From positions 32,001 through 96,000 of IMG/VR virus record IMGVR_UViG_3300045988_132745: a stretch of DNA of 64,000 nucleotides, one strand, 5' to 3'. The notes beneath the pieces were generated by a model. The model made no database searches, was not told where the DNA came from, and saw only the letters and a list, made by a program, of their open reading frames with translations. Position 1 is the stretch's first letter; each line of letters starts with the position of its first letter. Source of the DNA: a virus. A program made the position numbers and the translations under genes. Positions 3,521 through 60,641 of the stretch are shown here, in pieces.

Positions 3521-3521
3521 T

Positions 3522-3656: not shown

Positions 3657-3660
3657 GCGC

Positions 3661-6448: not shown

Positions 6449-6556
6449 AACATAAAATAATAAATAATACGAGGTGGGTAAGGTCAGACTGAAGGTCTTG
6501 CACCGTGAAACTGACTCTCACACGGATAGCATACGGAGTTCTCTTTAGTGAATCAT

Positions 6557-6611
6557 GCGTTTTTCCGAAACGTGTCTCACGAGGTCATAGGTTCGAATCC
6601 TATCTTTTCTT
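6557..6611 (+). ncRNA. tRNA-like 3' fragment (possible UCC anticodon arm, canonical T arm, 3' acceptor strand)
   Basis: GCGTT-TTTCCGA-AACGT at 6557-6573. T arm ATAGG-TTCGAAT-CCTAT at 6587-6603. CTTTTCT at 6604-6610, then TTCCA. No matching 5' acceptor strand lies upstream. Confidence 0.35.
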
Positions 6612-6617
6612 TCCATA

Positions 6618-6644
6618 AGAAATGTAGCTCAGCTGGTTAGAGCA
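6618..6644 (+). ncRNA. tRNA-like 5' fragment (5' acceptor strand plus canonical D arm)
   Basis: AGAAATG-TA-GCTC-AGCTGGTTA-GAGC-A, with T8, A14, G18 G19 and A21 in the expected places. No T arm follows it. Confidence 0.35.
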
Positions 6645-6785
6645 AGTTTTGTGCAAAAATCACTCCGCAGTCAACATATTCTATTTCGCTATCACTATCA
6701 CCCGACTGCGGTGGCTATCATTATCGCCATCATTATCACAGAAGTGCCGTATGAAGAATGTGGCTCACCTCATTTTCTCTATTCT

Positions 6786-7346
6786 ATGAAACTAATTACA
6801 ATTACAGGTCCGAGTGGTGTGGGCAAAGATACCGTGGCAAAGATGATGTCGAAGATGACCGACTGGCCTGTTATCTGTTCTTACACCACACGACCGAGAC
6901 GTTTTGGCGAGGTTGCCGGCGAGGATCATTATTTTGTAGACAAATGTGACGTACCTCGCGAAAAGATTTTAGCTTATACGCAATATGGCGGCTATGAGTA
7001 TTGGGCTATGGTAGACCAAATAAAAGATATAGCCATCTATGTGATAGACGAAGCAGGGCTGGTTGACTTGAAAAAACATCATCCCGAAATTACGGTCTAT
7101 TCCATTTACGTCTTCAGTCCAGCAGTGGCACGTTTGACAAGAGATATTAAACTTTCACGGATATTGAGAGACGAAGAACGTCTGAAGTTGACCGCATATT
7201 ATGACTATGATTGTTGTATATACAATGACTTCTTTATGAACTTAAAAAATCTGTGCTTTGAGGTAGCAAGATGCGTTTGCCACATGCCGTTTGTCAAAGA
7301 ACATCTTGATCCTTATGATCCAAAAACCCCGCATTTTACTGATTAA
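6786..7346 (+). CDS. Guanylate-kinase-like (d)NMP kinase
   Basis: P-loop GPSGVGKDT and the TTRPRRFGEVAGEDHYFV signature. Start chosen at MKLITITG because the longer ORF from 6651 runs through the tRNA-like region. Confidence 0.75.
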   Translation: MKLITITGPSGVGKDTVAKMMSKMTDWPVICSYTTRPRRFGEVAGEDHYFVDKCDVPREKILAYTQYGGYEYWAMVDQIKDIAIYVIDEAGLVDLKKHHPEITVYSIYVFSPAVARLTRDIKLSRILRDEERLKLTAYYDYDCCIYNDFFMNLKNLCFEVARCVCHMPFVKEHLDPYDPKTPHFTD

Positions 7347-7364
7347 AGTTTAAATATATAAACA

Positions 7365-8274: not shown

Positions 8275-8721
8275 ATGAAGATACTATTTAAGAAACTTGA
8301 CGAAAAGGCTCAAATGCCAGTAAAGGCAGTTGGACATGAAGCCGACTTTTGTTACGACTGCGTTGCTGTAAGCGAAACTGAGGTTGCTCCAAATGTATGG
8401 AAATATGGGTTGGGCTTTGCTTTACAGCCTATAAATGATTTTGATGGTTACAATATACGTAGCTTCAATATTCGTTCTCGGTCTTCGGTGTGGAAGACAG
8501 GTATGGTGCTCTCCAATTCTCAAGGTACGATTGACGAGATTTACACAGGAGAAATTTCGGCTGTATTCTATCACGTAATGCCTAACATGCCACGCTATAA
8601 AGTTGGCGACAAAGTATGCCAGCTCTGCCTGGAGCGCACCGAGTCGTTGGAGTTTGTGGAAGTAACTGAACTTCGCAAAACTTCACGTGGTGAACACGGC
8701 TACGGCTCTACTGGTAAGTAA
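8275..8721 (+). CDS. dut: dUTP diphosphatase
   Basis: The trimeric dUTPase motifs RSRSS, GTIDEIYTGEI and SRGEHGYGSTGK are present. Confidence 0.85.
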   Translation: MKILFKKLDEKAQMPVKAVGHEADFCYDCVAVSETEVAPNVWKYGLGFALQPINDFDGYNIRSFNIRSRSSVWKTGMVLSNSQGTIDEIYTGEISAVFYHVMPNMPRYKVGDKVCQLCLERTESLEFVEVTELRKTSRGEHGYGSTGK

Positions 8722-21516: not shown

Positions 21517-22695
21517 ATGAAGAACGTAAAGATTTTCGCAAAGACCATTGAGCAGGAGGCCAAGGAACAGATTGAGAGGATGGCAGCGAGCGAGGCTTAT
21601 CGCGATTGTCAGATACGCATTATGCCCGACTGTCATGCGGGCAAGGGATGCACGATTGGTACGGTAATTCAGACTGCCGGTAAGGTGGTGCCCAATACCG
21701 TAGGCGTGGATATAGGCTGTGGTATGTTGGTATTCAAGTTCGCTGAGAAGGATATAAACCTTTCGCTTCTCGACCGAATCATCAATGAGTCGGTGCCGAG
21801 CGGATTTGACGTTCACGAAAAGTCCAAGCTAAAAGATATAAGTCCGCTTACGTCACATATTTTGCTCGAATTACACGAAAGGACACAAGGCTGCTTCGAC
21901 CCCGACTATATCGGACGCTCGCTTGGCACCCTCGGTGGCGGCAATCACTTCATCGAGTTGGACGAGGACGAGCAGGGTTATAAGTATCTTGTGATACATT
22001 CGGGCAGTCGCAATCTCGGAGTTAAGGTGTGCAACTTTTTCCAACACTTAGCCAAGAAGAATGTGAATCGAAACGAGGAGCGCAAGCGCATCATCGAAGA
22101 CTTAAAGAAGTACGGCTTAGAGAAGGAGATTAACAATACGTTGCGTCGTTTGGGCACCGTGCCTCCCGATCTCGCCTATCTTGAGGGAGAAGACCTCGAT
22201 GCCTATATTTTCGCAGCGAACGTCTGTCGGTGTTTTGCAGACGACAACAGATGGAATATAGCAATGACTATCATCCATGGGCTTCATTTACCGTTCGTGG
22301 ATTTCTTTACCACCAGGCATAACTATTTCGACATACACTCAGGCATCATCCGAAAAGGAGCCGTGCGAGCTGCAAAGGACGAACAGCTCATCATTCCGCT
22401 CAATATGCGCGACGGTTCGCTTCTGTGTATAGGCAAGGGCAACGACGACTGGCTTCAGTCGGCTCCGCACGGAGCTGGCAGACTAATGTCGCGCTCGGCG
22501 GCCAAGAAGCAGCTCAGCATGGAGGAATACCGACAGCAGATGCACGACATTTACTCCACATCGGTATGCGAGTCAACAATCGACGAGTCACCAATGGCGT
22601 ACAAGCCAGCCGAAGAGATAGAATCGCTTATAGCCGACACTGTGGAAATTAAAAAGCGCATTAAACCTATATACAATTTCAAAGCGAAAGAGTAA
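21517..22695 (+). CDS. rtcB: RtcB-family RNA 3'-phosphate ligase
   Basis: MPDCHAGKGCTIG, VGVDIGCGM, GGGNHFIEL, HSGSRNLG and APHGAGR are all present, in order. Confidence 0.9.
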   Translation: MKNVKIFAKTIEQEAKEQIERMAASEAYRDCQIRIMPDCHAGKGCTIGTVIQTAGKVVPNTVGVDIGCGMLVFKFAEKDINLSLLDRIINESVPSGFDVHEKSKLKDISPLTSHILLELHERTQGCFDPDYIGRSLGTLGGGNHFIELDEDEQGYKYLVIHSGSRNLGVKVCNFFQHLAKKNVNRNEERKRIIEDLKKYGLEKEINNTLRRLGTVPPDLAYLEGEDLDAYIFAANVCRCFADDNRWNIAMTIIHGLHLPFVDFFTTRHNYFDIHSGIIRKGAVRAAKDEQLIIPLNMRDGSLLCIGKGNDDWLQSAPHGAGRLMSRSAAKKQLSMEEYRQQMHDIYSTSVCESTIDESPMAYKPAEEIESLIADTVEIKKRIKPIYNFKAKE

Positions 22696-43222: not shown

Positions 43223-46200
43223 ATGACACAAGCGACAACCAAAGACTATTGGATTTCGCCTTCGGCATTGCATATTGAACTAAATGCCCTTGGCTATCCC
43301 GACTATATCCAGGCATCGTGCGTAAGCGGTGCCCAGATACTTGTGTACGTCAAGGACATTATCGGCTTCGATGCCGGACACAACTACCGACGCTGGCCTT
43401 TGCAGGCTGCTGCAACGGTATTCAATACCCACACCGAGAAATATGTTTATGTCGCCATTCCTCGCGATATGACGCTCACGGCTTCGGCATGGATAGTATT
43501 CCCGTCCGAACAGATAGACATCTACGGCAAGAATGAAAAAGAAGAGCAGATAGGCGACGAGAAGTTCTATTACATCTTTCTGCAAGGCATCATAACCTCT
43601 TCGGGCGATAACGGCACGGTGCAGCGCGATTGGAAGAAAGGCGGCAGAATTGTATATGGCTACTTGTCCTCAGACGAAGCTATCAGCGCCATCCCCAATG
43701 AAAGCGAGTGGTATAACTATTCTTCGGTAGATGGTATCGTGACCTTCCTCAAAGACATCACGATGAAGGCAGGCACCAAATTCCGCCAACTCTTCGCCAA
43801 TGTGCTAACCATCGTGTCCGGAGGTAAAATAGCCTTTGAGGGCCAAGGCGAGGTGAATGGAGTGGCCATTGATTCAACTTCACTTGACTCTGTAGATAAA
43901 ATTGTTACTCCCAACTATCTTGACAATAAGGCTCTGTCTAAAGTACATGAAGATGTAGCAAAAAAGGTAATAACCTTCATGGAAGGACTGACGGTTGGAA
44001 TGGACAAGAAAAAAGGTATTGATGCAAAAGGCAACGCTGTGTTGGGCGATGTGGTACTCGACCGTGTGCGCGACCCCCACTCTACCGAGGCGGACCGAAC
44101 CATTATCGGTGCGCAGGGATTTGACCTGTACATGGGTGAGGACGGCAAGAGCCACATGTACATTGACTACCTGACGACTCGTGTAAAGATGTTTGCGGCA
44201 AGTGCCGAGGTTAGGAAGGTGAGCTATTCGGGCGGTACAACTATCTTCTCGAACGCTGGTTCTACTATTATTAAGGTGGCTTACATATTCGACGCATCGG
44301 GCTCAAAGGTGATAGCGTACAAGTGCTATGCTGCTGCTGACGATGGTACAACAAGAACCATGAACTGGTGGCATGTGGGCATGATGGCTCTATGCCAGAC
44401 GTTTAACGTGAAGGCAGGTGAGACAGAGAATCTTGCCAATAGATATTATTGGCGCATGGTGGTTGGTGTTGGACAGGAGACATTGGAAGATGGAAAGCTG
44501 TACGACTATGTTATGTTGTCGAACATGGCTACATTTGTTGGTGGCGACAATGTTATACCGTCGTATTGCTCGAAGCTGATAGCCAAGAAGAAGGTAGCCC
44601 TTAAATGGGGTAATATAGCCGTGATGGTGGCACAGCAAGACGGTATGATGAGTATAGCTCAGCTCTTTGCCGAGCAGGAAGGCGGACGTACACAAGACGA
44701 TGACAAGAACGAGATTGCGAGTCGTGTATTCTACGGATATGACGAAGGAAGTGTGGCACCATTGGCGGGTGACGTGATTGTTAATGTGGGAGACCAAATA
44801 CGTTGGAACTCACGCGGCAATGTTATCAAGCTGACAACATCGACTGAGGACAACAGTGCGGACACAGCGCCTTCTATCACTATGTACCACGGTATTGGCG
44901 CATTGTGGGAGACGGGCAAAGTGGATGCGGGCAAGCAGCCTGTGCGTAATCCGTACCAGTGGAAAACCGTGACATGTGTAATCTCGCCTGAGCTTACAAT
45001 GTTCAATACGGAGAGATTCAAATGGTTCTCGGGTACACCCGATAATCTGATAGACCCTATCACAGTGATGTGGGAGATTGTGCCTACATCAAGCAGCATT
45101 GTGCGCCACGTGAGCAACCGCACAACTACGCCTACAGACATTACCTTTACATTGGTAAAGCATACGGGTAGTAAGGCGGAGACAATAGCTGCCGAGAATG
45201 TTGTGTTCAAGGCTACGATAGAGTATCAAAATGGCAATAAGCTGAATAATGCTCCTTTCAAGAATTTGTCATCCCTTGCCAGTTTGTACGACATGAAGAG
45301 TGTGAAGGTTGACGCTTATCTGAAGGAGGAAATTAAGGGCACGGATGGACAGACGGAGATGAAGCAGACGCTTGTTAAGAGCACTAATGTGATTGTTACA
45401 AGCGACGGTAAGGAAGGTAGCAGCGGACGTGGCATAGTAAGCGTAAACACCTTCTATGCCTTGGGCGACAATATTACTACCTCGCCTGTAGATGCGGAAT
45501 ACAAATACGATACATTGTCGGCTGTTGTTATAAAGAATAATGCCGACAAATACGTATGGAGTGCTGATAAGGTGACATACAGCAACAATACTACGGAGCT
45601 TACTGGCAAGTACTGTGTTGGCAAATGTGCTGACTTGACCAGCGTAACCGAGATGTGGGGTATATCTAATTCGGCAACTGTAAAGCCTACTGTGTGGTCG
45701 GACATCTATCCTGACGAGACAAAGCTGACACCCGGTACGTACATTTGGAGCCGTGACGAGATAGTTTGGCTGGATGGTACAAAGACGTACAGCGAGGCTC
45801 AACTTGTCGGGTATGTAGGTAAGGATGGAGATAAGGGAGAACCAGGAACCCCTGGCGACCCAGGTAAGCCTGGAGAACCAGGAGCCGATGGACAGGACGC
45901 TATACAAGTAGATTTTTTGCCTACAGCTCTAACGGTAGAAGCTAATAGCGATAGCAGCGGCAATGCCGTTGTAGATTGTTCGAGCGGTAATATCACAGCA
46001 GAGATATTGGTGAGAAGTGGCAGCAAGTCGGTAATGTCGGCATGCGACAAGATAGAGATTGCGAGTGTTGACGGATGTACAGCCGAGGTGGTAAGGACGG
46101 ACGTGAACACAGCCAAGGTACGCATAAACTCTGTAAGCTACACGACCATTGACGGCAAGCGCATATCGTGGACTACGGCAAGCGTTACCGTGAGAGTACA

Positions 46201-48397
46201 TTGTCTGCTGACGAATCTCTACTACTCGGCCACACTCGCTATAAACGTCAATGTGGCGGCATTGTGGGGAGAGTACAAGCGCGACATGAAGAGTATGGAG
46301 AGCAAGTACACCGAGATAAGCAATACCGTTAACGGAATACCTATCAAGACCGATACCGACCTGACTAAATACACCTCGAAGATAGAGCAGTCGGCAAGAA
46401 ATATATCTCTTAAAGTTGGCGAGACCGTTGTGGGCAGACACAATCTGCTTACGGGCAGCGCATTCGAGAAGAAAACTGACTATTGGACAGGCAACGATGC
46501 GTATACGCCCTATATCTCGGTGCTTAACAACTATAATGGCTACAACTCGGTTGTGATAGAGGGTAAGAGCGGAGGCAACCGTGGCGTAGATTTTATACGT
46601 GTTAAGGTGAAGGAGGCTCGCAAGTATGTTGTTAGCGCAATGCTCAAATGTAGTGGAGCGGTAAGCGAAGGAGACTTTAATGCGTACATCTTACAACGCG
46701 ACGGTAGTATGGTCGAATTAAACAAGAACCTTTTCATACCGTTATCGGTGGCTAAGAACATGGTAGCTAACGAGTGGATGCTTGGAGTAGAGACCTTGAC
46801 GCTTGATGCCAACACGGTGTTCATCGATTGTGTATTCCTCTATTACGGCACCAAGACAGCCTATATTGCTTGTCCGCAGATAGCCGAGGGTGAAGAATAT
46901 GCAGGATATACGCTATCGGAACAAGACCGCGGCTATATTGGCGGCAACCTGCTAATCAATAGCGACACATTGGTTAAGCCAGAGACCTTGTCTATATACA
47001 ACTCCGACCCTCTTGTAGTAGACGATACGCACACAACCTTGCTGCAAAATGATGATGCAGACAAGTACGGCAGCTATGCTACACTGTATACTGACGCTAC
47101 ATCTGCCGAAATAGACACTATACGTTGGAACCTGGATGGCATGAACATCATTAAGCAGGGGCAGATGTATATGTTGTCATTTGTCGCAAAGGGTACTGGA
47201 ATGTATTATGCCTTCTTGTACAACGACGGTACTTCTTCTATCGCTACCGAGGCGAGCGGATTCACAGCTGGCAATACGAGTTCGGGCGGCGGTGCAGCTA
47301 TTGCATTATCATCGACATGGCAACGATATTTTGTGTTTTGGCGAGTTGTAGGCGACAAGTTGCCTATATACGTATTGTTCCGCGCCATGAAAGGTAGCAA
47401 GCTGTATCTCTCACAACCAAAATTGGAATATGGTGCTACAGTAACTGAGTATCGTGCCGAGAAGACTGGCTACGTTGAAGACAAGTCGATAGCTGGCAGT
47501 CTGCTTGATGCGGGCATTGACATCAACAGCAAAGAAATAATGCTCACGGCAGACAAGACGACCTTCAGGACTACCAAAGGCACTAAGGTAGCTATGTTCG
47601 ACGAGGACGGACTGAACGCTCAACTTGTGAGAGCACAGCGTCTACAAACCAAAGGTAAGAACGGATTAGAGGTAAGAATAGAGGATGGCATGGTGCAAAT
47701 CTTCGGCGCAGCTGGTGTGGCTAATATCCGCTTCGGTCTTGACGATAATGGATATGCCACACTTGGCTATTACGACAACCACGGCAACCTGTTGTACGAT
47801 CTTGGTCCGAAGGGCGTGGCATCGCTCAGCCTCTCAAAGGCATCGTTGACAAGAGCTATGTATATAGACCTTGTTGCCGCTGGACTTACAACTCCTTATT
47901 ACAGCAAGAAGGATGGCTACAACTGGATAAGCGATGCCAATAACAACAAGGTATTTGGAGTGTTTGCCGTGGCTGACAGATACGTAAGAGACAACCTTGG
48001 TGTTAGTGAGGGCATAGAGTTGTACCAATATCGCGCGCCTTCCATTAATGGAGAGATTGCTGCTGACAGCGTATACAATCTGACCAAGGCACAGGCAGAG
48101 AAGGCTAACGGTTGTTACTTCACAAGCAATCAGATACAGGTTATTGGCGACAACTTCCTTAATATAGCCAAGGGCGCGTATCTGCCTTGGGACACCCAAA
48201 CAGTGGATAACACTAAGTATAGACTACCAGGAGGTACGAAGGTGCCGAAACTGTTGGTTAGAATGTTTATAACGCAATCACTACTGGGAACAACGCCTGT
48301 AGTGAACTTTGAGACAGTGTATGGCGGAGGCGTATACACGTTTCCTGGAAACGGCACTGACTTGAATGCTGACTTGAATACATATGTAAGGAAATAG
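43223..48397 (+). CDS. Giant tail fibre / host-interaction protein with a collagen-like segment
   Basis: 1724 aa. G-X-Y run GKDGDKGEPGTPGDPGKPGEPGADGQD around nt 45820-45900. Confidence 0.65.
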   Translation: MTQATTKDYWISPSALHIELNALGYPDYIQASCVSGAQILVYVKDIIGFDAGHNYRRWPLQAAATVFNTHTEKYVYVAIPRDMTLTASAWIVFPSEQIDIYGKNEKEEQIGDEKFYYIFLQGIITSSGDNGTVQRDWKKGGRIVYGYLSSDEAISAIPNESEWYNYSSVDGIVTFLKDITMKAGTKFRQLFANVLTIVSGGKIAFEGQGEVNGVAIDSTSLDSVDKIVTPNYLDNKALSKVHEDVAKKVITFMEGLTVGMDKKKGIDAKGNAVLGDVVLDRVRDPHSTEADRTIIGAQGFDLYMGEDGKSHMYIDYLTTRVKMFAASAEVRKVSYSGGTTIFSNAGSTIIKVAYIFDASGSKVIAYKCYAAADDGTTRTMNWWHVGMMALCQTFNVKAGETENLANRYYWRMVVGVGQETLEDGKLYDYVMLSNMATFVGGDNVIPSYCSKLIAKKKVALKWGNIAVMVAQQDGMMSIAQLFAEQEGGRTQDDDKNEIASRVFYGYDEGSVAPLAGDVIVNVGDQIRWNSRGNVIKLTTSTEDNSADTAPSITMYHGIGALWETGKVDAGKQPVRNPYQWKTVTCVISPELTMFNTERFKWFSGTPDNLIDPITVMWEIVPTSSSIVRHVSNRTTTPTDITFTLVKHTGSKAETIAAENVVFKATIEYQNGNKLNNAPFKNLSSLASLYDMKSVKVDAYLKEEIKGTDGQTEMKQTLVKSTNVIVTSDGKEGSSGRGIVSVNTFYALGDNITTSPVDAEYKYDTLSAVVIKNNADKYVWSADKVTYSNNTTELTGKYCVGKCADLTSVTEMWGISNSATVKPTVWSDIYPDETKLTPGTYIWSRDEIVWLDGTKTYSEAQLVGYVGKDGDKGEPGTPGDPGKPGEPGADGQDAIQVDFLPTALTVEANSDSSGNAVVDCSSGNITAEILVRSGSKSVMSACDKIEIASVDGCTAEVVRTDVNTAKVRINSVSYTTIDGKRISWTTASVTVRVHCLLTNLYYSATLAINVNVAALWGEYKRDMKSMESKYTEISNTVNGIPIKTDTDLTKYTSKIEQSARNISLKVGETVVGRHNLLTGSAFEKKTDYWTGNDAYTPYISVLNNYNGYNSVVIEGKSGGNRGVDFIRVKVKEARKYVVSAMLKCSGAVSEGDFNAYILQRDGSMVELNKNLFIPLSVAKNMVANEWMLGVETLTLDANTVFIDCVFLYYGTKTAYIACPQIAEGEEYAGYTLSEQDRGYIGGNLLINSDTLVKPETLSIYNSDPLVVDDTHTTLLQNDDADKYGSYATLYTDATSAEIDTIRWNLDGMNIIKQGQMYMLSFVAKGTGMYYAFLYNDGTSSIATEASGFTAGNTSSGGGAAIALSSTWQRYFVFWRVVGDKLPIYVLFRAMKGSKLYLSQPKLEYGATVTEYRAEKTGYVEDKSIAGSLLDAGIDINSKEIMLTADKTTFRTTKGTKVAMFDEDGLNAQLVRAQRLQTKGKNGLEVRIEDGMVQIFGAAGVANIRFGLDDNGYATLGYYDNHGNLLYDLGPKGVASLSLSKASLTRAMYIDLVAAGLTTPYYSKKDGYNWISDANNNKVFGVFAVADRYVRDNLGVSEGIELYQYRAPSINGEIAADSVYNLTKAQAEKANGCYFTSNQIQVIGDNFLNIAKGAYLPWDTQTVDNTKYRLPGGTKVPKLLVRMFITQSLLGTTPVVNFETVYGGGVYTFPGNGTDLNADLNTYVRK

Positions 48398-48429: not shown

Positions 48430-50766
48430 ATGGCAGAAAAAACAGAGAAAAGGATTAAGGTGCTGCTTACACCGGGTGGCTCGGAATGGGTGGCGGATAA
48501 GGAGTACAAGAGACTTGACTACATCTCGGACGGCAAGTCCGTGTGGGTGTGCGTCAAGGTGGATGCCGTGTCGGGTGTAAACGTGGGGCATCCGCTAACG
48601 GAGACGGCGTGGTGGAACAAGTGCATCGACCTTAGCGAGGCGGAGAGCCTTGCTGGCGAGGCGACTGCTGCAGCTAACGCTGCCGCGACTACCGCCAACA
48701 ATGCGGCTCAGGCGGCAGAGGATGCCAAGACGGCGGCGGAGGCGGCTGTCTCCGAGGCAAACAAGGCTACGGAAGCTGCCAATACCGCGACATCGGCGGC
48801 ACAGGCTGCCACTGCTGGGGCTAACGACGCTACTGCTGCCGCCGAGAAGGTGAACGCTGTGCTTGGCGATGACAACGTGCTGAAGGTGACGGACAGAAAT
48901 GGAGTCGAGAAATCTTTGGAGCTGGTGTCGCAGGCTGCAGCAACAGAGATAGCGAAGCAGGTGGAGCAGAACACGGCGGACATATCGGGCGTGCAAAAAC
49001 GTCTCGATATGTTCGGTGATGCTTTTGTAGGCTTTGCCCGTGTGTCGGGCGATGCCGACCCGAAACCTTCGCAGACCTACATCTACGGCACACGCCAGCT
49101 GGTGCGCGAGATTGGCAAGCACATGAAGATAGGCACCGTGAAGCGTGTGGGCAACGAAGCTGTGTTGCAGCATGAGGGTGCGCCTGGACGCATAACCAAG
49201 GCAAGCAACGGCGAGGCAATGGCTGTGGATGGCTCGGAGGGTGACTTGTTGGTATATACCGACATTCCTCTGCATCTTATCAAGGCTAACGAGACTGTCG
49301 AAGGACAGGAAATGAGCTGTATGGGCATAGGTGTAGTGCCTTGCTACTGGATGGGCCATGCAGCCAAGCGACTGGAGCCTTTCGCCTTTGCTCCATTCTA
49401 TACTGTCAACGCAAAGATATTCGACGATGAGCGTTCGTGCGCACATTGTATCATCTCTGATGCAGTGGCTGGTACGTCTTTTACGCTTAACGGATTCGTA
49501 CAAGAGACGTTCCGCCCAAATGCAAATGGTTATTACAATGTAGGTGTCTCGTCATTGGGATCGATACATAATGCACAGGCTAAGAACGCCGACTCTAACA
49601 CCAACCGTCCGTACATGGGAGGCTACTATGAGTTCTACGAGCTGTGGATGACGATGATGTACATTGAGTGCGGCACGCTCAACACTACCGACCTCTACAG
49701 CATGGGTGTAGGTCTGACTACAGCCCACTCGGCAACAGCCGACACTTGGAACAACGAGCGCATTGCTGCAAACTCGGGCATAAAGATGATAGCGGCAGAC
49801 GGCACGGTGGCAGGTTATGGTGCACTGATGTCGAAGAGCATGCGCAAGGGTGCAGACGGTAAGGTGGACTATAACCTCTCGGCAGTAGTGGGTAACGGAT
49901 ATTACAGCGCGACTAAGTGCGGAGAGGCATTGATGGTGCTCGACGGCATAACTAAGGCAGGATTGCAGAGTAAGGTAGGCTTGTCTACTAATGTGTTCTA
50001 TTTTGACGAGACGAACAATCTGGTATGCTCTACATCTATCAATCTTGACACAGGCGAGGGCATGACCCCCAACAAGCGATACTTCGTTGTGCGCGACGTG
50101 CCTAACTGTCAGGGTATCGGCGAGGGAGTGCTCACGGCTGTAATAAATACTTATGTCAAGTTCTCGGTAGCCGACGGTATATATACAGACAGTACCGACC
50201 TTACGGGAGGCACGGTAATATACAAGTTCTCGCATTCGGTGTACCGTGGCATGAGTATTCCTATGGACGGTGCATTCATGCAGCTATGTGGCGCACATTA
50301 TATGTCTGGACGTACAGCTGAAGATACTGTCTACGGCAAGTTCTGTTGTGCCGAGAAATGGCAGGACATGGCACCGTTGACAAACGACACTGCCTATGGC
50401 GATATTGGCACTGAGTTCAACATTCTAAAGGGATTGAACAACGTAAAAAGCGTAAGTGGTAACGCAGGATGGGTAAGCAAGGCCGACTATTCTCTGTCGC
50501 TGTTCTGCTTTACCGAGCACAGCGGCGGTATGCACACTAAGGAGTGCCGCTTTACTTGGAACGGTAATACACTATGGGGCTATGGTGATAGCAATACAGG
50601 TTTGCCCGCTACAGGTAAGGAAGGCGTAAAGGCTCTGGTTGTCGGGTGCAATGCGAACTGTGGCACTGCGTCGGCTTGTACCGCTATTTGCTACTCTGGC
50701 GTTAGCAATGGCGATTGGTATTACGCTGGGGCTTTGGCTGTCCCTCAGCTTAAATTCAAGCAATAA
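48430..50766 (+). CDS. DGR target protein (fibre-like; Ala-rich coiled coil; C-terminal variable region)
   Basis: 778 aa. The last 45 codons or so contain the VR that matches the downstream TR. Confidence 0.8.
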   Translation: MAEKTEKRIKVLLTPGGSEWVADKEYKRLDYISDGKSVWVCVKVDAVSGVNVGHPLTETAWWNKCIDLSEAESLAGEATAAANAAATTANNAAQAAEDAKTAAEAAVSEANKATEAANTATSAAQAATAGANDATAAAEKVNAVLGDDNVLKVTDRNGVEKSLELVSQAAATEIAKQVEQNTADISGVQKRLDMFGDAFVGFARVSGDADPKPSQTYIYGTRQLVREIGKHMKIGTVKRVGNEAVLQHEGAPGRITKASNGEAMAVDGSEGDLLVYTDIPLHLIKANETVEGQEMSCMGIGVVPCYWMGHAAKRLEPFAFAPFYTVNAKIFDDERSCAHCIISDAVAGTSFTLNGFVQETFRPNANGYYNVGVSSLGSIHNAQAKNADSNTNRPYMGGYYEFYELWMTMMYIECGTLNTTDLYSMGVGLTTAHSATADTWNNERIAANSGIKMIAADGTVAGYGALMSKSMRKGADGKVDYNLSAVVGNGYYSATKCGEALMVLDGITKAGLQSKVGLSTNVFYFDETNNLVCSTSINLDTGEGMTPNKRYFVVRDVPNCQGIGEGVLTAVINTYVKFSVADGIYTDSTDLTGGTVIYKFSHSVYRGMSIPMDGAFMQLCGAHYMSGRTAEDTVYGKFCCAEKWQDMAPLTNDTAYGDIGTEFNILKGLNNVKSVSGNAGWVSKADYSLSLFCFTEHSGGMHTKECRFTWNGNTLWGYGDSNTGLPATGKEGVKALVVGCNANCGTASACTAICYSGVSNGDWYYAGALAVPQLKFKQ
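50631..50748 (+). repeat. DGR variable region (VR)
   Basis: Aligns without gaps to 51117-51234 (offset 486). 12 of the 13 differences are at TR adenines. Confidence 0.85.
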
Positions 50767-50833
50767 AAAGGCAGCAAAAACAAAAAGCTGTCGGCCGTTA
50801 GACAACAAGCCTTGAGCGACGCCAACCAGCTGA

Positions 50834-50857
50834 GGGGCGGCGGCTGTTAGCCGCCCC
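50834..50857 (+). other. GC-rich hairpin downstream of the VR
   Basis: GGGGCGGC-GGCTGTTA-GCCGCCCC, nested in CCAGCT..AGCTGG. Confidence 0.6.
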
Positions 50858-50925
50858 GACTGGCGCCTTGTGGAGCTGGCAAATAATCAATAAACTTCAA
50901 GTATTTCTCAAAAAACAAAAATATT

Positions 50926-52794
50926 ATGACTCTCATCGAACAGAAAAATATCGACACAACGAAGCAGCCATCATCGGAGAATGGGGTGATGTACGGCTGT
51001 CCGGTGGGTGCGTCTTGTCATGAAGCACACGGTAAGCTCTCTCCTGCGGTGGACGGCAATGTGCCGACCGAGCCGTGTGTGACGGTTGACAAAGACAAAA
51101 GCGTGGGTAAGGAAAAGGCTCTCGTTGTCGGGTGCAATGCGAACAATGGCAATGCGTCGGCTTGTACCGCTAATTGCAACAATGGCGTTAGCAATGACAA
51201 TTGGAATTACGCTGGGGCTTTGGCTGTCAATCAGGTAGAAGATAGCAGGAAACACCTTACAACGCGACCAACAAGGTTAAACATAGCGAACACCCATACC
51301 GCCACTGGTGGGTATGGATTGGTAGACTGCCGCTCATTGCCGTTTTGGAGCGAGAGCACGGAGGCAGACGGCACTATCGGGAATGGTGCCAAACCGATGA
51401 AGGCTACCCATGAGGGAAATATCCTCGATGAATTGAAGACAGCGAATCATAAGAAGAAGCTGAGAAACTTGAAGAGATTTTTGACAGACCCTGTGATTGT
51501 GCGCATGGGTGTAGACAGATGTCTGGAGAGGGCAAGCGACTCGCCCGAAGTGCGCAATATTGAAAACAACAAGGAATACGTAATACAGCGCATAATACGT
51601 GAGCTGACCGACGAGACCTACAGATGTCAGCCTACCGTGCGTCGCATTATCGAGAAGAAAGGCAAGGGCGACAAGAATCGCAATGCCGACATATACACGG
51701 TGTATGACAGATGTGTGCAAAACGTGCTGCTGATAGTAATAAAGGAGAAGCTAACAAACATCATTTCGCCTTATTGCTATTCGGGCATTGAAGGCAGAAG
51801 CCTGTGGAGCAACGACAAGCGCGGGTGTATGGTGAACCGAATACGTACATACGTAAAGAACCATCCCGATGCGAGCGCAGGATTGACGGACATACGTCAT
51901 TTCTACGAGACGCTAAAATCGAAGGTGGTGCTTGGTGTGGTGTTCGAAACTATCACTTGCCCGTTTACACGCCGATTGCTGTGCGACATACTATTGCAGC
52001 ACGACACGCTCGTTATTGGAGGTACGCTGTCGCAGATTCTCGCTATGCTTACGTTGACGGAGATGGATAACGAATTGACAAGACGCTTTAAACCGCAATT
52101 CTATGGTGGCTTTGGTGACAATCGTATCATCATGGACGATGATAGAGAGAAGGTGTTGAAAGCCGTGCATTGGGAAAGGAGTTATCTTGAAGGTAGGTAT
52201 GGCATGGAGATGAAGGGCGACTATCAGGTGGTGAGAGTGAAGAATGGCTTTATGTTTTGCAAACAGCACTTTAAAGGGTCGTTTGTGAACGTTAGGTCGG
52301 AGCTTAGGCGTAGGGCTATACGTGCAGCAGGCAGAGGCAGGCAGAACTATGCCGGCTATCACGGAATGTTGATGAAGACGGACAGCAGAAGACTGATACA
52401 ACTTATAAGAAATGATATTAGACGATTAAAAAGAATGAAGAATCAAAAAGGAATGTCGGTACGCCCTATGGTTGGCGACAATATCAAACTGGATAAGGTA
52501 GAGGGTATGCAGATTGTCATTACAGACTATTCGGTACGCCAGAACCATAAGGACAGCGAGTTCTTCGTTCGCTTTCAGTTTGTGGCAATAGGCGACGATG
52601 GTAGCAAGCATCTGTTTGTCACCAACAACGGCAGCTACGAGATAAAGGAGTTCTTCAAACTGGCTGAGGAAGGCAAAGTGAAAATTCCGTTGAAAACGAA
52701 GATATGCGCAGAGGGCAAGTCGTTTTACTTCGAGGGGTATCACACTACGAGTCAGGAGGCATGCGAACTGATATGCGCTAAGTTGGGAATATAG
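50926..52794 (+). CDS. DGR reverse transcriptase (the ORF as drawn includes the TR; alternative start ATG 51397)
   Basis: RT motifs RRIIEKKGKGDKNR, YSGIEGRS and the DGR-type IGGTLSQ. The catalytic hairpin reads GGFGDNRIIMDDD. About 120 extra C-terminal aa. Confidence 0.8.
   Translation: MTLIEQKNIDTTKQPSSENGVMYGCPVGASCHEAHGKLSPAVDGNVPTEPCVTVDKDKSVGKEKALVVGCNANNGNASACTANCNNGVSNDNWNYAGALAVNQVEDSRKHLTTRPTRLNIANTHTATGGYGLVDCRSLPFWSESTEADGTIGNGAKPMKATHEGNILDELKTANHKKKLRNLKRFLTDPVIVRMGVDRCLERASDSPEVRNIENNKEYVIQRIIRELTDETYRCQPTVRRIIEKKGKGDKNRNADIYTVYDRCVQNVLLIVIKEKLTNIISPYCYSGIEGRSLWSNDKRGCMVNRIRTYVKNHPDASAGLTDIRHFYETLKSKVVLGVVFETITCPFTRRLLCDILLQHDTLVIGGTLSQILAMLTLTEMDNELTRRFKPQFYGGFGDNRIIMDDDREKVLKAVHWERSYLEGRYGMEMKGDYQVVRVKNGFMFCKQHFKGSFVNVRSELRRRAIRAAGRGRQNYAGYHGMLMKTDSRRLIQLIRNDIRRLKRMKNQKGMSVRPMVGDNIKLDKVEGMQIVITDYSVRQNHKDSEFFVRFQFVAIGDDGSKHLFVTNNGSYEIKEFFKLAEEGKVKIPLKTKICAEGKSFYFEGYHTTSQEACELICAKLGI
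51117..51234 (+). repeat. DGR template region (TR)
   Basis: Invariant copy carrying AAT/AAC at the codons that vary in the VR. Confidence 0.85.
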
Positions 52795-52876
52795 AGTTGG
52801 GAATTAGGAGTTAGGAGTTAGGAATTGATCGCCTATGGCGATTTTGAGTTATTGAATTTTGAATTGAGAATTAAGA
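52795..52876. repeat. Intergenic element: AGTTAGG / TTGAATT heptads around an ATCGCC-TAT-GGCGAT hairpin (family 2)
   Basis: Read directly from the sequence. Related in reverse complement to 36186-36255. Confidence 0.5.
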
Positions 52877-52891
52877 ATATAAAATTTTATT

Positions 52892-53485
52892 ATGGAAATG
52901 ACAAGAATGATTTTTGAGCAGAAGCAGCCGAAGGTGGTTGTCTGCAAAAGTGGCAGGGCTATGATTGCTCTTAACGAGCAGGTAGTGAAGTCTGTGGAGA
53001 GTGTACCTGTGGGTATGACCGAGGAGGGTGAAATGCGCTACGAGGAGCGAGAGAAGGAACAGTATGCGTATGATGTGTGCTGGCTTGAGAATGTTGGTAC
53101 AGAAGCCGACGTGCTCAACTCGGCTAAAGCGGCTGTGCTCGCCGCTATTGAAGCCTACGACACTTCATCTGCTGTCAACGGCTTTATCCTCAACGGACAG
53201 CGTGTTTGGCTCGACAAGGCGACACGTGTAGGTCTGATGAACTCTACCACTATCGCTAAGGCTATGGGACAGCCTACTACTACACTGTGGTTGGGCGATG
53301 TGAAGCTGGTAGTGGAGTGCGACAAGGCTATACAGCTGCTCTCGGCACTGGAGATGTATGCCCTGGAGTGCTTTAACGTTACGGCTGCGCACAAGAAGGC
53401 TGTAGCGGAAATGAGCACGGTGGAGAGTGTACTGGGGTATGACTATACGAAGGGGTACCCGAAGGTGCTGGAAATGAGAGTTTAA
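52892..53485 (+). CDS. Hypothetical protein downstream of the RT
   Basis: 197-aa ORF. No family verified. Confidence 0.5.
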   Translation: MEMTRMIFEQKQPKVVVCKSGRAMIALNEQVVKSVESVPVGMTEEGEMRYEEREKEQYAYDVCWLENVGTEADVLNSAKAAVLAAIEAYDTSSAVNGFILNGQRVWLDKATRVGLMNSTTIAKAMGQPTTTLWLGDVKLVVECDKAIQLLSALEMYALECFNVTAAHKKAVAEMSTVESVLGYDYTKGYPKVLEMRV

Positions 53486-53638
53486 GTGAAAAGTGAAGAG
53501 TGAAAAATCCATGTGCTTTTGCTTCTTGCGAGGATTTTGCGCTCTTTTAACTATCGGATTCTTCACTCTTCGTTCTTCACTCTTCACTTTAAAAAGCTAT
53601 TGGATTTTTCCCTTTTCACTTTTAACTTTTAACTTTAA
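53485..53638. repeat. Family-1 intergenic element: long inverted repeat of GTGAARA heptads, plus an inverted AAAAATCCAATAG box
   Basis: Arms at 53485-53510 and 53556-53589, then CTATTGGATTTTTCCCTTTTCAC at 53597-53619. Confidence 0.7.
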
Positions 53639-54424: not shown

Positions 54425-54509
54425 GTGAAAAACGAAGAGTGAAAAGTTAAAAATCCAATAGTTAAGAGAGCATATGGATTTTTCACTCTTCACTTTTCAC
54501 TCTTCACTT
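54423..54509. repeat. Family-1 intergenic element: 35-nt imperfect inverted repeat
   Basis: AAGTGAAAAACGAAGAGTGAAAAGTTAAAAATCCA pairs with TGGATTTTTCACTCTTCACTTTTCACTCTTCACTT, about 30 of 35 positions. Confidence 0.75.
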
Positions 54510-54529: not shown

Positions 54530-55570
54530 ATGAAAAAGATAGTAAGAGGTAATGATTTTACATTGCGCATACCCGTGCGCAAGATTGTGGGGGGCGAGAT
54601 GCAGAAGTTTCCATTGCCTGCATGCGAGGAGATTGAGGTGAACCTTGTAAACGCCTTTCGTCGCAGAAGAATGGCGCATACGATAGGTGTGGAGGACGAC
54701 TCGCTGCTTGAGGTGAGGGTGCAAAGCTCGGAGATGGCTCTGGGTGCGTATGCCCTTGAGGTGAAGGGCAAGTTGTTTGGCTGTTCATGGCGAAGCAATG
54801 AGTATGAACAGATAATGCTTGTGGATAATAATGCGTCGGGCGACACAGTGTTTGAGCCACATGAGGGTGAGGACTCGGTTGAGATGGACACGGCTGTTGT
54901 GGTGCTGCCTCCTACCGTGGAACTTGGCAACCTGATAACGGGGGCAAACGAGGCTATCAAGAAGGCGAATGTGGCTACTGACAGAGCTAATGCTTCGGCA
55001 GACAAGGCTGACAAGGCTGCTGCGGACGCTAAGAGCACGGCTGATACTGCTGCTGCAGAAGCGAAGGCTACTGCGGACGCTGCTGCTGCCGAGGCGAAGA
55101 AAACGGCTAATGACGCTGCTGAACTGGCTATTACAACTGCTAATGATGCCGCGACCGATGCAGAACAGAGAACGACCGCTGCTATTGCCGAAATGACTAA
55201 GCAGACGGACACTACGCTTGCTGCTGTTACGCAACAGACAACGGACGCTATTGCTGATGTTAAGCAACAGACTACAGACGCTATTGCTGACGTTAAGCAA
55301 CAGACAACGGACGCTATTGCTGATGTTAAGCAACAGACAGATACTGCTATTGCCGACGTGAAGCAACAGACTGCCGATGCTATTGCCAAGAACGACAAGG
55401 CTACGACCGATGCTGTGGCTAAGGCTGACAAGGCTACGGCTGACGCTGTGAAGGCTAAGACGGATGCGGACACGGCTGCGGACAGGGCTAATACGGCTGC
55501 AGAAAGATGCGAGAGCGTGAACGTAGATTTTGATGTGGAAAGAGGAGAATTGGTGATTGTAAGTGAATAG
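54530..55570 (+). CDS. Fibre-like protein with an Ala/Thr/Asp-rich coiled coil and 11-aa tandem repeats
   Basis: QQTTDAIADVK repeated about 4.8 times. Composition is like the coiled coil of the DGR target. Confidence 0.55.
   Translation: MKKIVRGNDFTLRIPVRKIVGGEMQKFPLPACEEIEVNLVNAFRRRRMAHTIGVEDDSLLEVRVQSSEMALGAYALEVKGKLFGCSWRSNEYEQIMLVDNNASGDTVFEPHEGEDSVEMDTAVVVLPPTVELGNLITGANEAIKKANVATDRANASADKADKAAADAKSTADTAAAEAKATADAAAAEAKKTANDAAELAITTANDAATDAEQRTTAAIAEMTKQTDTTLAAVTQQTTDAIADVKQQTTDAIADVKQQTTDAIADVKQQTDTAIADVKQQTADAIAKNDKATTDAVAKADKATADAVKAKTDADTAADRANTAAERCESVNVDFDVERGELVIVSE
55232..55390 (+). repeat. 33-bp tandem repeat, about 4.8 copies (coding)
   Basis: CAACAGACAACGGACGCTATTGCTGATGTTAAG and variants. 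Confidence 0.85.
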
Positions 55571-55635
55571 TGAAAAGGGAAAAATCCAATAGCTTTTAAG
55601 AGTAAAAAAGTAAAAGGGTAAAAAAGTAAAAGGGT
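55562..55635. repeat. Family-1 intergenic element (GTGAA heptads, AAAAATCCAATAG box, GTAAAAG repeats)
   Basis: Read directly from the sequence. Confidence 0.7.
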
Positions 55636-55641: not shown

Positions 55642-56070
55642 ATGAAAGCAAGTGACATTTTGATTGACAAACTGAAGCAGTTTGAGGGGTATCGGGCCAA
55701 GGCTTACAGATGCCCTGCTGGAGTGTGGACGTGTGGGTATGGGCATACCAAGGGCGTAACGGCTCGCACGGCGTGCGACAAAGCGAAGGCTCTTGCATGG
55801 CTAAGGTCTGACCTTGCGCCTATCGAGAGCTTCCTATCGGCTGTGCCTGAGGTGGCGAAGACGCAAGGACGCTTTGACGCATGTGCGGATTTCTGCTTTA
55901 ATCTTGGTACGGGTGCCTTCCGTGGCTCTACGCTCTTTAAACTGATACAGAAGAAGGCTTCGATGGCTGCTATCCAGGCGGAGTTCTTGAAGTGGATTTA
56001 TGCAGGAGGTAGACCGTTGGAAGGATTGAAAATGAGAAGACGATGGGAAGCAGGCCGCTTTGCGGAGTGA
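55642..56070 (+). CDS. Endolysin, GH24 (T4-type) lysozyme
   Basis: LKQFEGYRAKAYRCPAGVWTCGYGHT catalytic region. 142 aa. Confidence 0.85.
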   Translation: MKASDILIDKLKQFEGYRAKAYRCPAGVWTCGYGHTKGVTARTACDKAKALAWLRSDLAPIESFLSAVPEVAKTQGRFDACADFCFNLGTGAFRGSTLFKLIQKKASMAAIQAEFLKWIYAGGRPLEGLKMRRRWEAGRFAE

Positions 56071-56120
56071 AGAGTGAAGAGTGAAAAGTGAAAAATCCAA
56101 TAGTTATGTAAAAGTGAAAG
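56066..56120. repeat. Family-1 intergenic element
   Basis: GAGTGAAGAGTGAAGAGTGAAAAGTGAAAAATCCAATAG. Confidence 0.7.
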
Positions 56121-59150: not shown

Positions 59151-60641
59151 ATGTTATGTAAAGATGATTTGGCGAAACCTAATAGGTGGAGCAATGTTAA
59201 TCTGACGCAAGAACAATATATAGCCAAAGCAAGAGCCAAATGGGGCGATGCTTACGACTATTCGGAGAGCGTGTATCTTGCCGGACTGAAGCCTATCACT
59301 ATTCGTTGTGTCAAGCACAATCGTTATTTTACGGTACAGGCAGGAAATCATATTAGTTTGAGCCAAAGAGGTCTTTCCGGTGGTTGTCCGTTGTGTGCAC
59401 AAGAACGTCTTGCTGAGTATAGAGAAAATAAACATAAGGAGACTTTGAGAAAAAACAAGCAGAAGAAAAAAGAAAGGCAAGAATCTCGCTTGTCTCCTCA
59501 TGATGTTTTTCTCAAAAAAGCTAAGGCGAAATATCCTCTCTATGACTTTTCGCTTGTGAAATATAAAGGTAGAGAAACTTATGTCACTATTATTTGTCCT
59601 GTTCATGGCGAGTTTAAGATTAAGCCTCGCACACTTCTGAGAGGAGAAAAAGGCAAAAATCCGCATGGTTGTTGGAAGTGTAACGGGATGGTGCCACCCT
59701 ATGAGCGAGAGAGCGGAATGGAATATTTTAAGCGTAAAATGTACGAGCTGTATGGCGATAAATACACCTTTATGTGGAGCGACTTCAAACATAAAAAGTC
59801 TCAAATCCGTTTCACTTGTAAACAGCATGGCGAACAGCACCGCAGCGCACAGGTGTTGTTGGAAGGAAAAGGCTGTGAGTATTGCAATGGCAAGCTTTGG
59901 CCTACTGATTGGATAAAAAACGCACGGGCTGTGCATGGAGATAAATACGAATACGACGAGAGCCGACCGCCAAGAATATTTACTGACCGTATTAGGTACA
60001 AATGTCCTGTGCATGGATGGCAGGAGACTCGTTATGATTGTCATGTACAGCAAGGCTGTGGCTGCGCATTGTGTGCAGGAGTTGTTAATAAGTTGTCTGC
60101 TGATGAACGAAAACAAATGTGGATAGAGAAATGCAAAGCGCGATTTCCGGGCAAGTATTCGTATCGTGATGTGGTGTATGTCAACAATGATACGCCAGTG
60201 AAGATATATTGTAAGGAACATCATCTTACTTTTGAAACTACACCCGATACGCATCTGAGAGGAGCTGGAGGCTGTCCACTATGCACCAAGTCGGTGGGCG
60301 AAGTGCAAATATACAAATGGTTAAGCGAACACGATGTTCCCTTTGAAACTCAAAAAAAATTGCCCAACGAGAATATGTTTTGCAAACGTCAGTATCTCGT
60401 TGCCGACTTCTATCTGCCCGACCTTAATCTGATAATCGAAATGAATGGACTGCAACATTATCAGTATGTAGAGCATTTCAACACTAAGGATTGGACGTTT
60501 GAGGATCAGCAGATACGCGACGACACCTTGCGAGCATATTGCTGCGACCACGGTGTGAATCTGCTTGAAATAAAGTATAATGAGATTGGCCGAATACCTA
60601 AAATCCTTGCTAAGGCGATAAAGAAATACGGCAAGCGATAG
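59151..60641 (+). CDS. Five zinc-ribbon-like repeats plus a C-terminal DUF559/Vsr-like PD-(D/E)xK nuclease domain
   Basis: Repeats of the type C(K/P).H(G/N)..F.......L.G.GGCP.C. C-terminus LVADFYLPDLNLIIEMNGLQHY. Confidence 0.55.
   Translation: MLCKDDLAKPNRWSNVNLTQEQYIAKARAKWGDAYDYSESVYLAGLKPITIRCVKHNRYFTVQAGNHISLSQRGLSGGCPLCAQERLAEYRENKHKETLRKNKQKKKERQESRLSPHDVFLKKAKAKYPLYDFSLVKYKGRETYVTIICPVHGEFKIKPRTLLRGEKGKNPHGCWKCNGMVPPYERESGMEYFKRKMYELYGDKYTFMWSDFKHKKSQIRFTCKQHGEQHRSAQVLLEGKGCEYCNGKLWPTDWIKNARAVHGDKYEYDESRPPRIFTDRIRYKCPVHGWQETRYDCHVQQGCGCALCAGVVNKLSADERKQMWIEKCKARFPGKYSYRDVVYVNNDTPVKIYCKEHHLTFETTPDTHLRGAGGCPLCTKSVGEVQIYKWLSEHDVPFETQKKLPNENMFCKRQYLVADFYLPDLNLIIEMNGLQHYQYVEHFNTKDWTFEDQQIRDDTLRAYCCDHGVNLLEIKYNEIGRIPKILAKAIKKYGKR

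Follow-up and report, generated by a model that had tools for sequence, protein, structure and literature searches.

A variant diversity-generating retroelement, very probably active, whose template repeat lies inside the reverse transcriptase reading frame of an uncultivated phage

No natural protein diversifier known is more powerful than diversity-generating retroelements (DGRs), which are being made into directed-evolution tools; what is known of their mechanism comes nearly entirely from the DGR of Bordetella phage BPP-1, which needs the accessory protein Avd. Here we describe a DGR located in 64,000 nucleotides (nt) of viral DNA, positions 32,001 to 96,000 of the IMG/VR record IMGVR_UViG_3300045988_132745 (the window below, with coordinates counted from its first letter and all parts of the element on the plus strand). 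It comprises a target gene of 778 amino acids (aa) at positions 48430 to 50766, which ends in a variable repeat (VR), a template repeat (TR), and a 622-aa reverse transcriptase (RT) open reading frame (ORF; 50926 to 52794) within which the TR is contained. We consider it very probable that this region is an active DGR in the tail fiber module of an uncultivated phage and that it represents a distinct variant. An initial sequence-only reading had called it a known class of element, which is right in that it is a DGR; however, it is not a standard one. An Avd gene was not detected, the RT is enlarged and divergent with FGDN in motif C, the TR and its flanking RNA, which is structured, lie inside a maintained RT frame, and the layout of the stop element lacks the Avd-binding part. 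The two ORFs and the RT motif IGGTLSQ (residues 364 to 370) were as that reading had given them.

In BPP-1, a segment of avd upstream of the TR forms a duplex with nucleotides 59 to 70 of the spacer (Sp59-70) that runs into a short stem-loop (Sp71-78), after which unpaired adenosines make A-minor contacts. Together, duplex, stem-loop, and adenosines form the "cPRT Stop," which is required for the synthesis of complementary DNA (cDNA) and marks its end (bioRxiv 10.1101/2023.10.23.563531). They are followed by a 13-nt "Thumb Ring" and a long stem-loop that binds the Bordetella RT (bRT), while the Avd-binding stem-loop (Sp5-32) is found between the TR and the primer strand (bioRxiv 10.1101/2023.10.23.563531). 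The survey of RNA elements in the same work covered DGRs with Avd homologues only. Avd-less DGRs with the order target-TR-RT have been described as "lineage 3" in Bacteroides and relatives (PMC5758913) and in the crAss-like phage LMMB (PMC7290462), and the 2018 survey presents their way of working as an open question (PMC5758913).

The architecture of the locus resembles that of the BPP-1 DGR (mtd-VR, avd, TR, spacer, brt), with the VR at the 3' end of a tail-fiber-type gene and the TR upstream of the RT. Other shared features are adenine-specific mutagenesis based on AAY codons, a GC-rich end without adenines at which VR and TR differ (the difference that in BPP-1 sets the direction of transfer), and an RT with the motif IGxxxSQ whose best match in the Protein Data Bank (PDB) is bRT, at very low sequence identity. 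The RNA elements also follow the same order, namely, a duplex of the TR flanks, an abutting 13-nt stem-loop, an AAA within 15 unpaired nt (16 nt in BPP-1, Sp79-94), and a long stem-loop. On the other hand, besides the missing Avd gene, only 20 nt separate the end of the TR from the stop strand where BPP-1 has Sp5-32, the RT has 622 aa versus 328 aa, with a conserved C-terminal extension of ~160 aa, motif C is FGDN instead of YMDD, and the TR and spacer are inside the RT frame, whereas in BPP-1 they are intergenic.

The lineage 3 or 3A DGRs (PMC5758913, PMC7290462) are similar in having target(VR)-TR-RT without avd, a phage tail-fiber-type target, and a likely Bacteroidaceae host, the likeness being one of architecture and host alone; however, neither FGDN nor a TR inside the RT frame is mentioned in the passages searched of these accounts. 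In "group 3" of DiGReF, too, the TR overlaps the RT frame as annotated; this is an annotation category, and no importance was argued for the overlap. In contrast, the overlap described here proves to be kept by selection (indels in multiples of three only and no stop codons in ten lineages) and includes the whole cis-acting RNA. Unlike the invariant motif-C aspartates of the DiGReF paper, the clade has an Asn. A natural bacterial RT with an Asp-Asn motif C has been described in the RT-Cas1 of a type VI-A CRISPR system (PMC11662929), although its function, spacer acquisition, is unrelated and involves neither TR/VR repeats nor adenine mutagenesis.

Variable and template repeats

The repeat finder detected a single long direct repeat between 47 and 54 kb of the window, formed by the VR (50628 to 50748) and the TR (51114 to 51234), with a length of 121 nt, a spacing of 486, and 89% identity. 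Base-by-base comparison at this offset, without gaps, gave 13 mismatches, 12 of which fall on TR adenines (hypergeometric p = 8e-8, with 30 A in the 121 nt of the TR). Both methods agree with the alignment proposed from the sequence alone, and its list of 12 adenine positions and of the VR bases facing them was reproduced exactly. When every A of the TR was replaced by N, the resulting pattern matched only the VR and the TR in the whole window, with 0 matches expected. All the adenine differences are at codon positions 1 or 2, and the TR codons involved are AAT or AAC with the exception of one GAC (51196 to 51198), contrary to the first impression that AAT/AAC stood at every differing codon. 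The VR encodes residues ~734 to 773 of the 778 in the target, and its mutagenized tract spans ~50630 to 50724. The corresponding tract of the TR contains 10 AAY codons and 25 adenines, enough for 1.1e15 variants at the DNA level and 1.5e14 at the protein level, and none of its adenine-containing codons can turn into a stop.

The 3' end of the VR (50724 to 50748) resembles an initiation of mutagenic homing (IMH) site. An adenine-free GC-rich block of 19 nt, CGCTGGGGCTTTGGCTGTC, identical in VR and TR, is followed by CCT in the VR (AAT in the TR) and then by CAG. Of the first 13 loci examined, 12 share CCT in the VR versus AAT or AAA in the TR, and residue P772 is invariant across 34 target variants (see below), so this triplet is a fixed boundary difference of the IMH/IMH* type and not a product of mutagenesis. 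The number of mutagenic differences in the window is thus 10; the last two of the 12 (51229 and 51230), although at TR adenines, belong to the boundary. Likewise, the label IMH, which had been given to the adenine-free end, is reasonable for it, but VR and TR are told apart by the fixed CCT/AAT that directly follows it. In the remaining locus, L004, the VR ends in AAT like the TR (positions 6112 to 6120 of that locus), which could reflect homing or recombination past the usual boundary. As for the only mismatch outside adenines, TR C51123 versus VR G50637, it had been taken for the 5' boundary of the repeat. It is a synonymous change (CTC to CTG) private to the window genome; loci L001 and L011 carry C in both repeats and the VR/TR homology runs on for ~9 to 11 nt further 5', so it is not the boundary.

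We fetched 22 related viral loci, all of which have a VR/TR pair at the same position. Counting the window and these loci (23 in total, L020 excluded), 316 of 324 VR/TR mismatches are on TR adenines, and several of the 8 exceptions stem from alignments that were extended beyond the ends of the repeats. L020 likewise conforms to the adenine-only pattern. The closest relatives, L001 and L011, have RTs 98% identical to that of the window and a TR differing from it by one base, whereas the three VRs are all mutually different, at adenine positions. At a larger distance, the ten FGDN loci that the detector reported (39 to 78% identity) have 11 to 18 VR/TR mismatches each, all at TR adenines.

The variation among target proteins has the same origin in the TR. 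We aligned 34 clusters of 778-aa targets from the protein database, 92 to 100% identical to that of the window, and the ten columns with the highest entropy (residues 741, 743, 744, 746, 753, 755, 756, 760, 762, and 764) are precisely the ten AAY codons of the TR. Each of them shows 7 to 11 residue types, all reachable from NNY, and mean entropy is 0.82 bits in the VR versus 0.10 elsewhere. Because the ten most variable columns coincide with the ten AAY codons, the element reads as active, and these comparisons point to recent activity in natural populations. The identification as a DGR made from the sequence alone is thus upheld by the formal alignment and by the repetition of the pattern in related genomes, and among near-identical target proteins VR polymorphism is confined to adenine-templated codons, with a conserved TR.

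Downstream from the VR, at a distance of 86 nt, there is a conserved hairpin (50834 to 50857) with the strands GGGGCGGC and GCCGCCCC and the loop GGCTGTTA. Its stems were tabulated by anchoring on the loop. In 13 lineages, both the loop GGCY(N0-2)YA and the closing C-G pair are retained, while 6 of the 8 stem positions vary compensatorily among several Watson-Crick pair types; the loop motif was found once in the window. The hairpin may be a target-recognition hairpin, a terminator, or both. That it only terminates transcription of the target gene, or belongs to the 5' end of the RT mRNA, with no role in homing, is quite possible, although we lean somewhat against it. The target hairpin of the Bordetella DGR reportedly adjoins the IMH, whereas here 86 nt lie between VR and hairpin, and the conserved loop is a different one. 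In addition, locus L002 has lost the hairpin through a deletion of ~30 nt (VR-TR spacing of 454 versus 484) and still shows 10 adenine-only VR/TR differences, so the hairpin is not strictly required for these differences to persist. However, a simple terminator does not need a loop and closing pair conserved across lineages whose stems differ, and no T-run follows the stem.

Some other observations were made in this intergenic region. In L017 (~5730 to 5760 of that locus) the loop is flipped to its reverse complement, GTGGTGC-TAAGCC-GCACCAC versus GTGGTGC-GGCTTA-GCACCAC in L018 and L019. The loop motif recurs in a smaller copy, GTC-GGCCGTTA-GAC, at 50788 to 50809 of the window, after the stop codon of the target and before the main hairpin, and the related loci have two or three GGCY..TA motifs between target and RT. 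Locus L020 contains a tandem duplication of 2.5 kb (~900 to 3400 and ~3400 to 5900, 100% identical) that includes the 3' part of the target, the VR, and its 3' flank, resulting in two identical VRs; it may be either a very recent event or an assembly artifact, and the idea that these two VRs were a sign of the downstream hairpin traveling with the VR was dropped for this reason.

The reverse transcriptase and its reading frame

The RT reading frame consists of a leader (50926 to 51113, codons 1 to 62), constrained at the nucleotide level, followed by the TR, a spacer-like RNA, the RT domain (51538 to 52305, residues ~205 to 460), and a C-terminal extension (52306 to 52791, residues 461 to 622). 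The end of the VR and the start of the TR are 365 nt apart, the last 188 nt of which are already in the RT frame, and the TR is read in the same frame as the VR, giving residues ~63 to 103 of the ORF. More than 100 clusters of RT homologues have nearly all a length of 621 to 628 aa. In the DNA alignment of 13 loci, the indels of the RT frame measure 3, 3, 3, and 18 nt, and those in the stretch just before the ATG 1, 2, 4, and 6 nt. In ten diverged lineages, six of which have leaders that cannot be aligned to that of the window, frame 0 is free of stop codons both across the leader and over the 170 nt that follow the TR, while the other frames contain on average ~3 to 5 stops each per segment. 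The arrangement extends to the wider family (32 to 44% identity), with an Asn-rich TR-coded peptide located 50 to 90 residues from the start in 15 of 16 representatives.

The rates of synonymous (dS) and nonsynonymous (dN) substitution differ along the gene. For codons 1 to 62, dS is 0.31 and dN/dS 0.45; for the TR codons, 0.38 and 0.29; and for codons 105 to 160, 0.31 and 0.91. The RT core (1.24 and 0.10) and the C-terminal extension (1.27 and 0.11) have much higher dS values. Given the low dS together with the indels in multiples of three and the absence of frame-0 stops, the first ~165 codons appear to be constrained mainly as nucleic acid and yet kept open by selection.

An alternative would be that these ~165 codons are untranslated and the RT starts internally, for example near the invariant M194, the long frame being a gene-caller artifact of a TR that copies coding sequence. 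The dN/dS values of 0.91 and 0.45 on the two sides of the TR would fit it, as would the lack of conservation of leader sequence and length among distant members, the lack of a confident fold for residues 1 to 188 in the structural model (weak throughout), and a representative (P0249) called from a start located after the TR. Nevertheless, we regard it as unlikely. In addition to the phase of the indels, which is kept within the frame and not just upstream of the ATG, and to the absence of stops in only one of the three frames, M158 is not conserved and there is no conserved start codon between the TR and residue 160, while residues 160 to 193 are conserved as protein and have an in-frame indel of 6 residues. 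Translation must therefore begin upstream of residue 160.

The closest solved relative of the RT is 8ub7, with an E value of 9e-6 for the single sequence and of 1e-12 (50.5 bits) for the family profile. The alignment pairs D322, the motif A aspartate, with D138, Q370 with Q187, D398 with D215, and N399 with D216; D138, Q187, and D215/D216 fall where bioRxiv 10.1101/2023.10.23.563531 places the active-site residues of bRT, so 8ub7 corresponds to bRT. The IGGTLSQ motif (52015 to 52035) is aligned to IGSLTSQ, in agreement with the DGR-type RT that had been recognized from this motif. Motif C, however, is FGDN (52111 to 52122) where bRT has YMDD, and differs from the catalytic YxDD of DGR RTs. The PHROG 1423 "reverse transcriptase" match (2e-31) starts at residue 70, inside the TR-coded part. 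Regarding other retroelements, a group II intron was discarded (no Rfam match at E <= 1 in 50000 to 53500, and 46 bits with the NCBIfam group II RT/maturase model versus a cutoff of 300), and so was a retron (RTs at ~20 bits with the family profile versus 50.5 for bRT, and no Rfam retron RNA in 50000 to 53500).

The family to which this RT belongs is small. An exhaustive profile search of 1.84 billion representatives gave ~15 at E <= 1e-80, mostly of 570 to 670 aa. FGDN(R) is present in all but one (YGDD) of the close representatives that cover motif C, and outside the FGDN family scores fall to RTs of ordinary size with Y[ACM]DD. Among 17 homologues, down to 69% identity, FGDN is invariant. 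Neither megablast of the cassette against deposited phages, which gave no match, nor tblastn of the RT against 50,697 deposited phage genomes, which gave three distant RTs only (<=29% identity), revealed a close relative. The C-terminal extension, which begins with a basic stretch and is absent from the 328-aa bRT, is conserved in distant family members and has no match in Pfam. Structure prediction with an alignment of 17 sequences was weak throughout, with a predicted local distance difference test (pLDDT) score of 38.

The second aspartate of motif C, replaced here by Asn, raises the question of whether the element is a relic whose RT lost its activity with this change, the VR/TR differences being left over from a former active phase. 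The replacement of YxDD by FGDN would be in favor of it, since both aspartates were 100% conserved in 155 DGR RTs (PMC3521204). We find it very improbable. FGDN is invariant in a clade with dS above 1 and dN/dS of 0.10, unlike what a pseudogene would show. Moreover, genomes sharing nearly the same TR carry different VRs, and the distant FGDN loci show adenine-only mismatches, so we take the Asp-Asn clade to be functional. Neither is FGDN unprecedented among bacterial RTs, as it forms the catalytic core of an RT-Cas1, for which mutation to FGAA served as the RT-minus control (PMC11662929).

A further variation within the clade affects the SQ motif, which is considered diagnostic of DGR RTs. Locus L023 (VR/TR at 4723 to 4827 and 6029 to 6133, RT ORF at 5875 to 7353) has an RT with IGCCLSP, that is, SP instead of SQ, as in group II intron RTs, and SP is also present in representatives P0246, P0248, and P0250 to P0253. 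The 11 VR/TR mismatches of L023 are all at adenines, so adenine-specific differences do not require the SQ motif in this clade.

Structured RNA around the TR and a model without Avd

To describe the RNA, RNAalifold was run on 12 loci over the segment 50926 to 51420 of the window, with 500 shuffles and with controls in which columns were slid by 1 to 3 positions. The predicted structure has 117 pairs in 21 helices. Over the full segment, 98.1% of cells are paired, with compensatory changes at 25 pairs and in 99 cells, versus 35 ± 5 cells in the shuffles; none of the 500 shuffles reached the observed values, and the slid controls gave at most 24 compensatory cells. Compensatory changes are carried by seven helices. 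The first (helix 6) is found in the leader (51025 to 51032 with 51073 to 51080) and has three compensatory pairs. Another (helix 8), also with three, brackets the TR by joining the sequence immediately 5' of it (51101 to 51112) to a sequence located 20 nt 3' of it (51255 to 51265, CCTTACAACGC), and is the candidate analogue of the cPRT Stop duplex. The VR/TR homology starts 0 to 2 nt past the 5' strand of this duplex, which would fit a role of the duplex in setting where the cDNA ends. Bracketing helices formed by other sequences exist in the distant loci L016, L017, L019, L021, L022, and L023 (GAACGA/TCGTTC, GCATGG/CCATGC, GTGGGG/CCCCAC, GCGAGG/CCTCGC, and GCAAGAGT/ACTCTTGC).

The duplex is abutted by a short stem-loop, GACC-AACAA-GGTT (stem 51266 to 51269 with 51275 to 51278), which has 3 of its 4 pairs compensatory and 100% of cells paired and is followed by a conserved AAA (51279 to 51281, the element as a whole covering 51266 to 51281). 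Next is a 10-bp stem-loop with one bulged G (51294 to 51317), CCATACCGCC-ACT-GGTGGGTATGG (stem 51294 to 51303 with 51307 to 51317), with 5 of 10 pairs compensatory and 99.4% of cells paired, a candidate for the RT-binding stem-loop. The 3' RNA domain (51318 to 51398) contains helices 51318-51323/51393-51398, 51328-51334/51360-51366, and 51373-51377/51383-51387; helices 18, 19, and 21, in this domain, have 3, 3, and 4 compensatory pairs, respectively. The two hairpins after the TR were also analyzed in a separate alignment of 17 loci that includes the distant ones, with 99.6% of cells paired, 8 of 14 pairs compensatory, and 0 of 500 shuffles reaching these values. From layout and covariation, we infer that these elements are functionally equivalent to those of BPP-1. 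The 20 nt between the TR end and the 3' strand of the stop-like duplex leave no room for an Avd-binding stem-loop, which agrees with the lack of an Avd gene; neither an Avd nor an HRDC Pfam match was found in the neighboring ORFs or among the matches listed for 45 mid-sized ORFs of the window.

The sequence of events that we propose would begin with the transcription of the RT gene, the first ~500 nt of the transcript being at once the start of the RT frame and the cis-acting RNA of the DGR. The TR would be closed into a domain by the helix formed by its flanks, followed by the short stem-loop, the run of adenosines, the longer stem-loop, and the 3' domain. The RT would then copy the TR into cDNA, misincorporating opposite adenines, with priming presumably provided in cis by the DGR RNA and with the bracketing helix acting as a stop or positioning element, both by analogy with the Bordetella phage system. 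The adenine-free GC-rich block together with the fixed CCT/AAT difference would set the 3' limit and the direction of transfer. The outcome would be up to ~1e14 variants of a surface of 25 residues at the C terminus of the fiber-like protein. In this scheme the work of Avd would be done by the enlarged RT, with its N- and C-terminal extensions. As a tentative proposal, possible but not one we favor, the RT might be translated from its own template, the first ~500 nt of its mRNA serving as DGR RNA and coding at the same time for an N-terminal peptide under little constraint. The nascent protein would then form its complex in cis with its own coding RNA and need no Avd. The C-terminal extension, the N-terminal region, or both would replace Avd in holding the RNA, and the Asp-Asn site would be an adaptation to this way of working.

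Several points weigh against an active, Avd-less DGR. An Avd-like protein may exist without detectable similarity or may be encoded beyond the 64-kb window. Activity is deduced from differences between assembled genomes. The Pfam RVT_1 model matches the RT with less than its gathering score, the protein is hardly set apart from group II intron RTs by similarity alone (42 to 44 bits with the family profile versus 50.5), and the Asn of motif C is at odds with the DGR RTs surveyed (see above). A primer:template duplex formed by the 20-nt linker and the 3' end of the TR was rejected, as its register differs between lineages and the priming site could not be placed consistently. On the side of the target, the C-type lectin fold on which a VR is usually displayed was not recognized: the VR domain has no profile match, a Foldseek search against the PDB gave no hit with E <= 0.001, only chance-level ones, and the AlphaFold model is weak (pLDDT of 52.7 overall and ~24 at residues 735 to 778). 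By comparison, an ordinary duplication held similar by recombination or gene conversion, with a coincidental adenine bias, would account for the existence of a direct repeat and nothing further, and can practically be dismissed in view of the adenine statistics (in the window and over 23 loci), the restriction of the differences to the first two positions of AAY codons from which no stop can arise, and the adjacent RT gene.

Target protein, genomic context, and significance

The target gene encodes a protein with a tail-fiber-like N-terminal part and the variable region at its extreme C terminus. It had been described as a fiber protein, for which there is support from the context and from weak matches to tail fiber PHROGs that cover only the N-terminal ~180 residues. 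Pfam, NCBIfam, and PDB searches of the protein gave no match, nor did Pfam and PDB profile searches with its C-terminal 179 residues, and an exact-sequence look-up of the protein found nothing on record. Its gene sits between those of a 1,724-aa collagen-repeat protein and a DUF4376 tail-fiber-like protein, with a lysozyme also in the neighborhood, and a receptor-binding role is likely. The 1,724-aa protein (43223 to 48397) has a short collagen-like Gly-X-Y stretch, and its homologue in L001 (322 to 1164) contains an internal duplication of ~411 nt, 76% identical. The related contigs suggest a phage genome of ~100 kb. A scan of GTDB genomes with a single protein found one match, a contig binned with a Bacteroidaceae metagenome-assembled genome, so the host is probably in the Bacteroidaceae.

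Other repeats were observed after the RT gene. A 14-nt tandem repeat, AGTTGGGAATTAGG, present in 3.4 copies (52781 to 52827), spans the RT stop codon (52792 to 52794). The sequence GTGAAGAGTGAA, made of GTGAA[G/A]A heptad runs, appears 10 times with at most one mismatch between 53486 and 56092 versus 0.36 expected, with all copies at or near gene ends (53486 to 53504, 55563 to 55574, and 56067 to 56092 on the plus strand; 53576 to 53587 and 54482 to 54507 on the minus strand), some of them forming inverted repeats (53484 to 53520 with 53592 to 53628). A role as a terminator or regulatory element common to late or lysis genes is possible. A 346-aa ORF (54530 to 55570), overlapped by a long antisense ORF, contains 33-nt (11-residue) tandem repeats, Ala/Thr-rich and coiled-coil-like, with 5 copies at 55218 to 55386 and more nearby. 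The phage also encodes an RtcB-type RNA ligase (PHROG 1075, E value of 2e-124), an HNH/homing endonuclease (PHROG 559, E value of 4e-80), and a dUTPase (regions 21517 to 22695, 59151 to 60641, and 8275 to 8718), and the Pfam scan of the window detected in addition a DNA methylase and a guanylate-kinase-like protein.

The element gives the phage access to ~1e14 variants of a probable receptor-binding tip, and many different variants are found in natural populations. A DGR RT working with Asp-Asn or, in the case of L023, with SP bears on how DGR RTs are recognized in metagenomes. The clade is also a compact test case for Avd-less DGRs, with one 622-aa protein and ~500 nt of RNA within its own gene, and the helices supported by covariation map one-to-one to the elements of BPP-1 with the exception of the Avd-binding stem-loop. 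If the RT were indeed translated from its own template and assembled on it in cis, this would be a minimal one-gene diversifier and a natural coupling of translation and ribonucleoprotein assembly in a bacterial retroelement.

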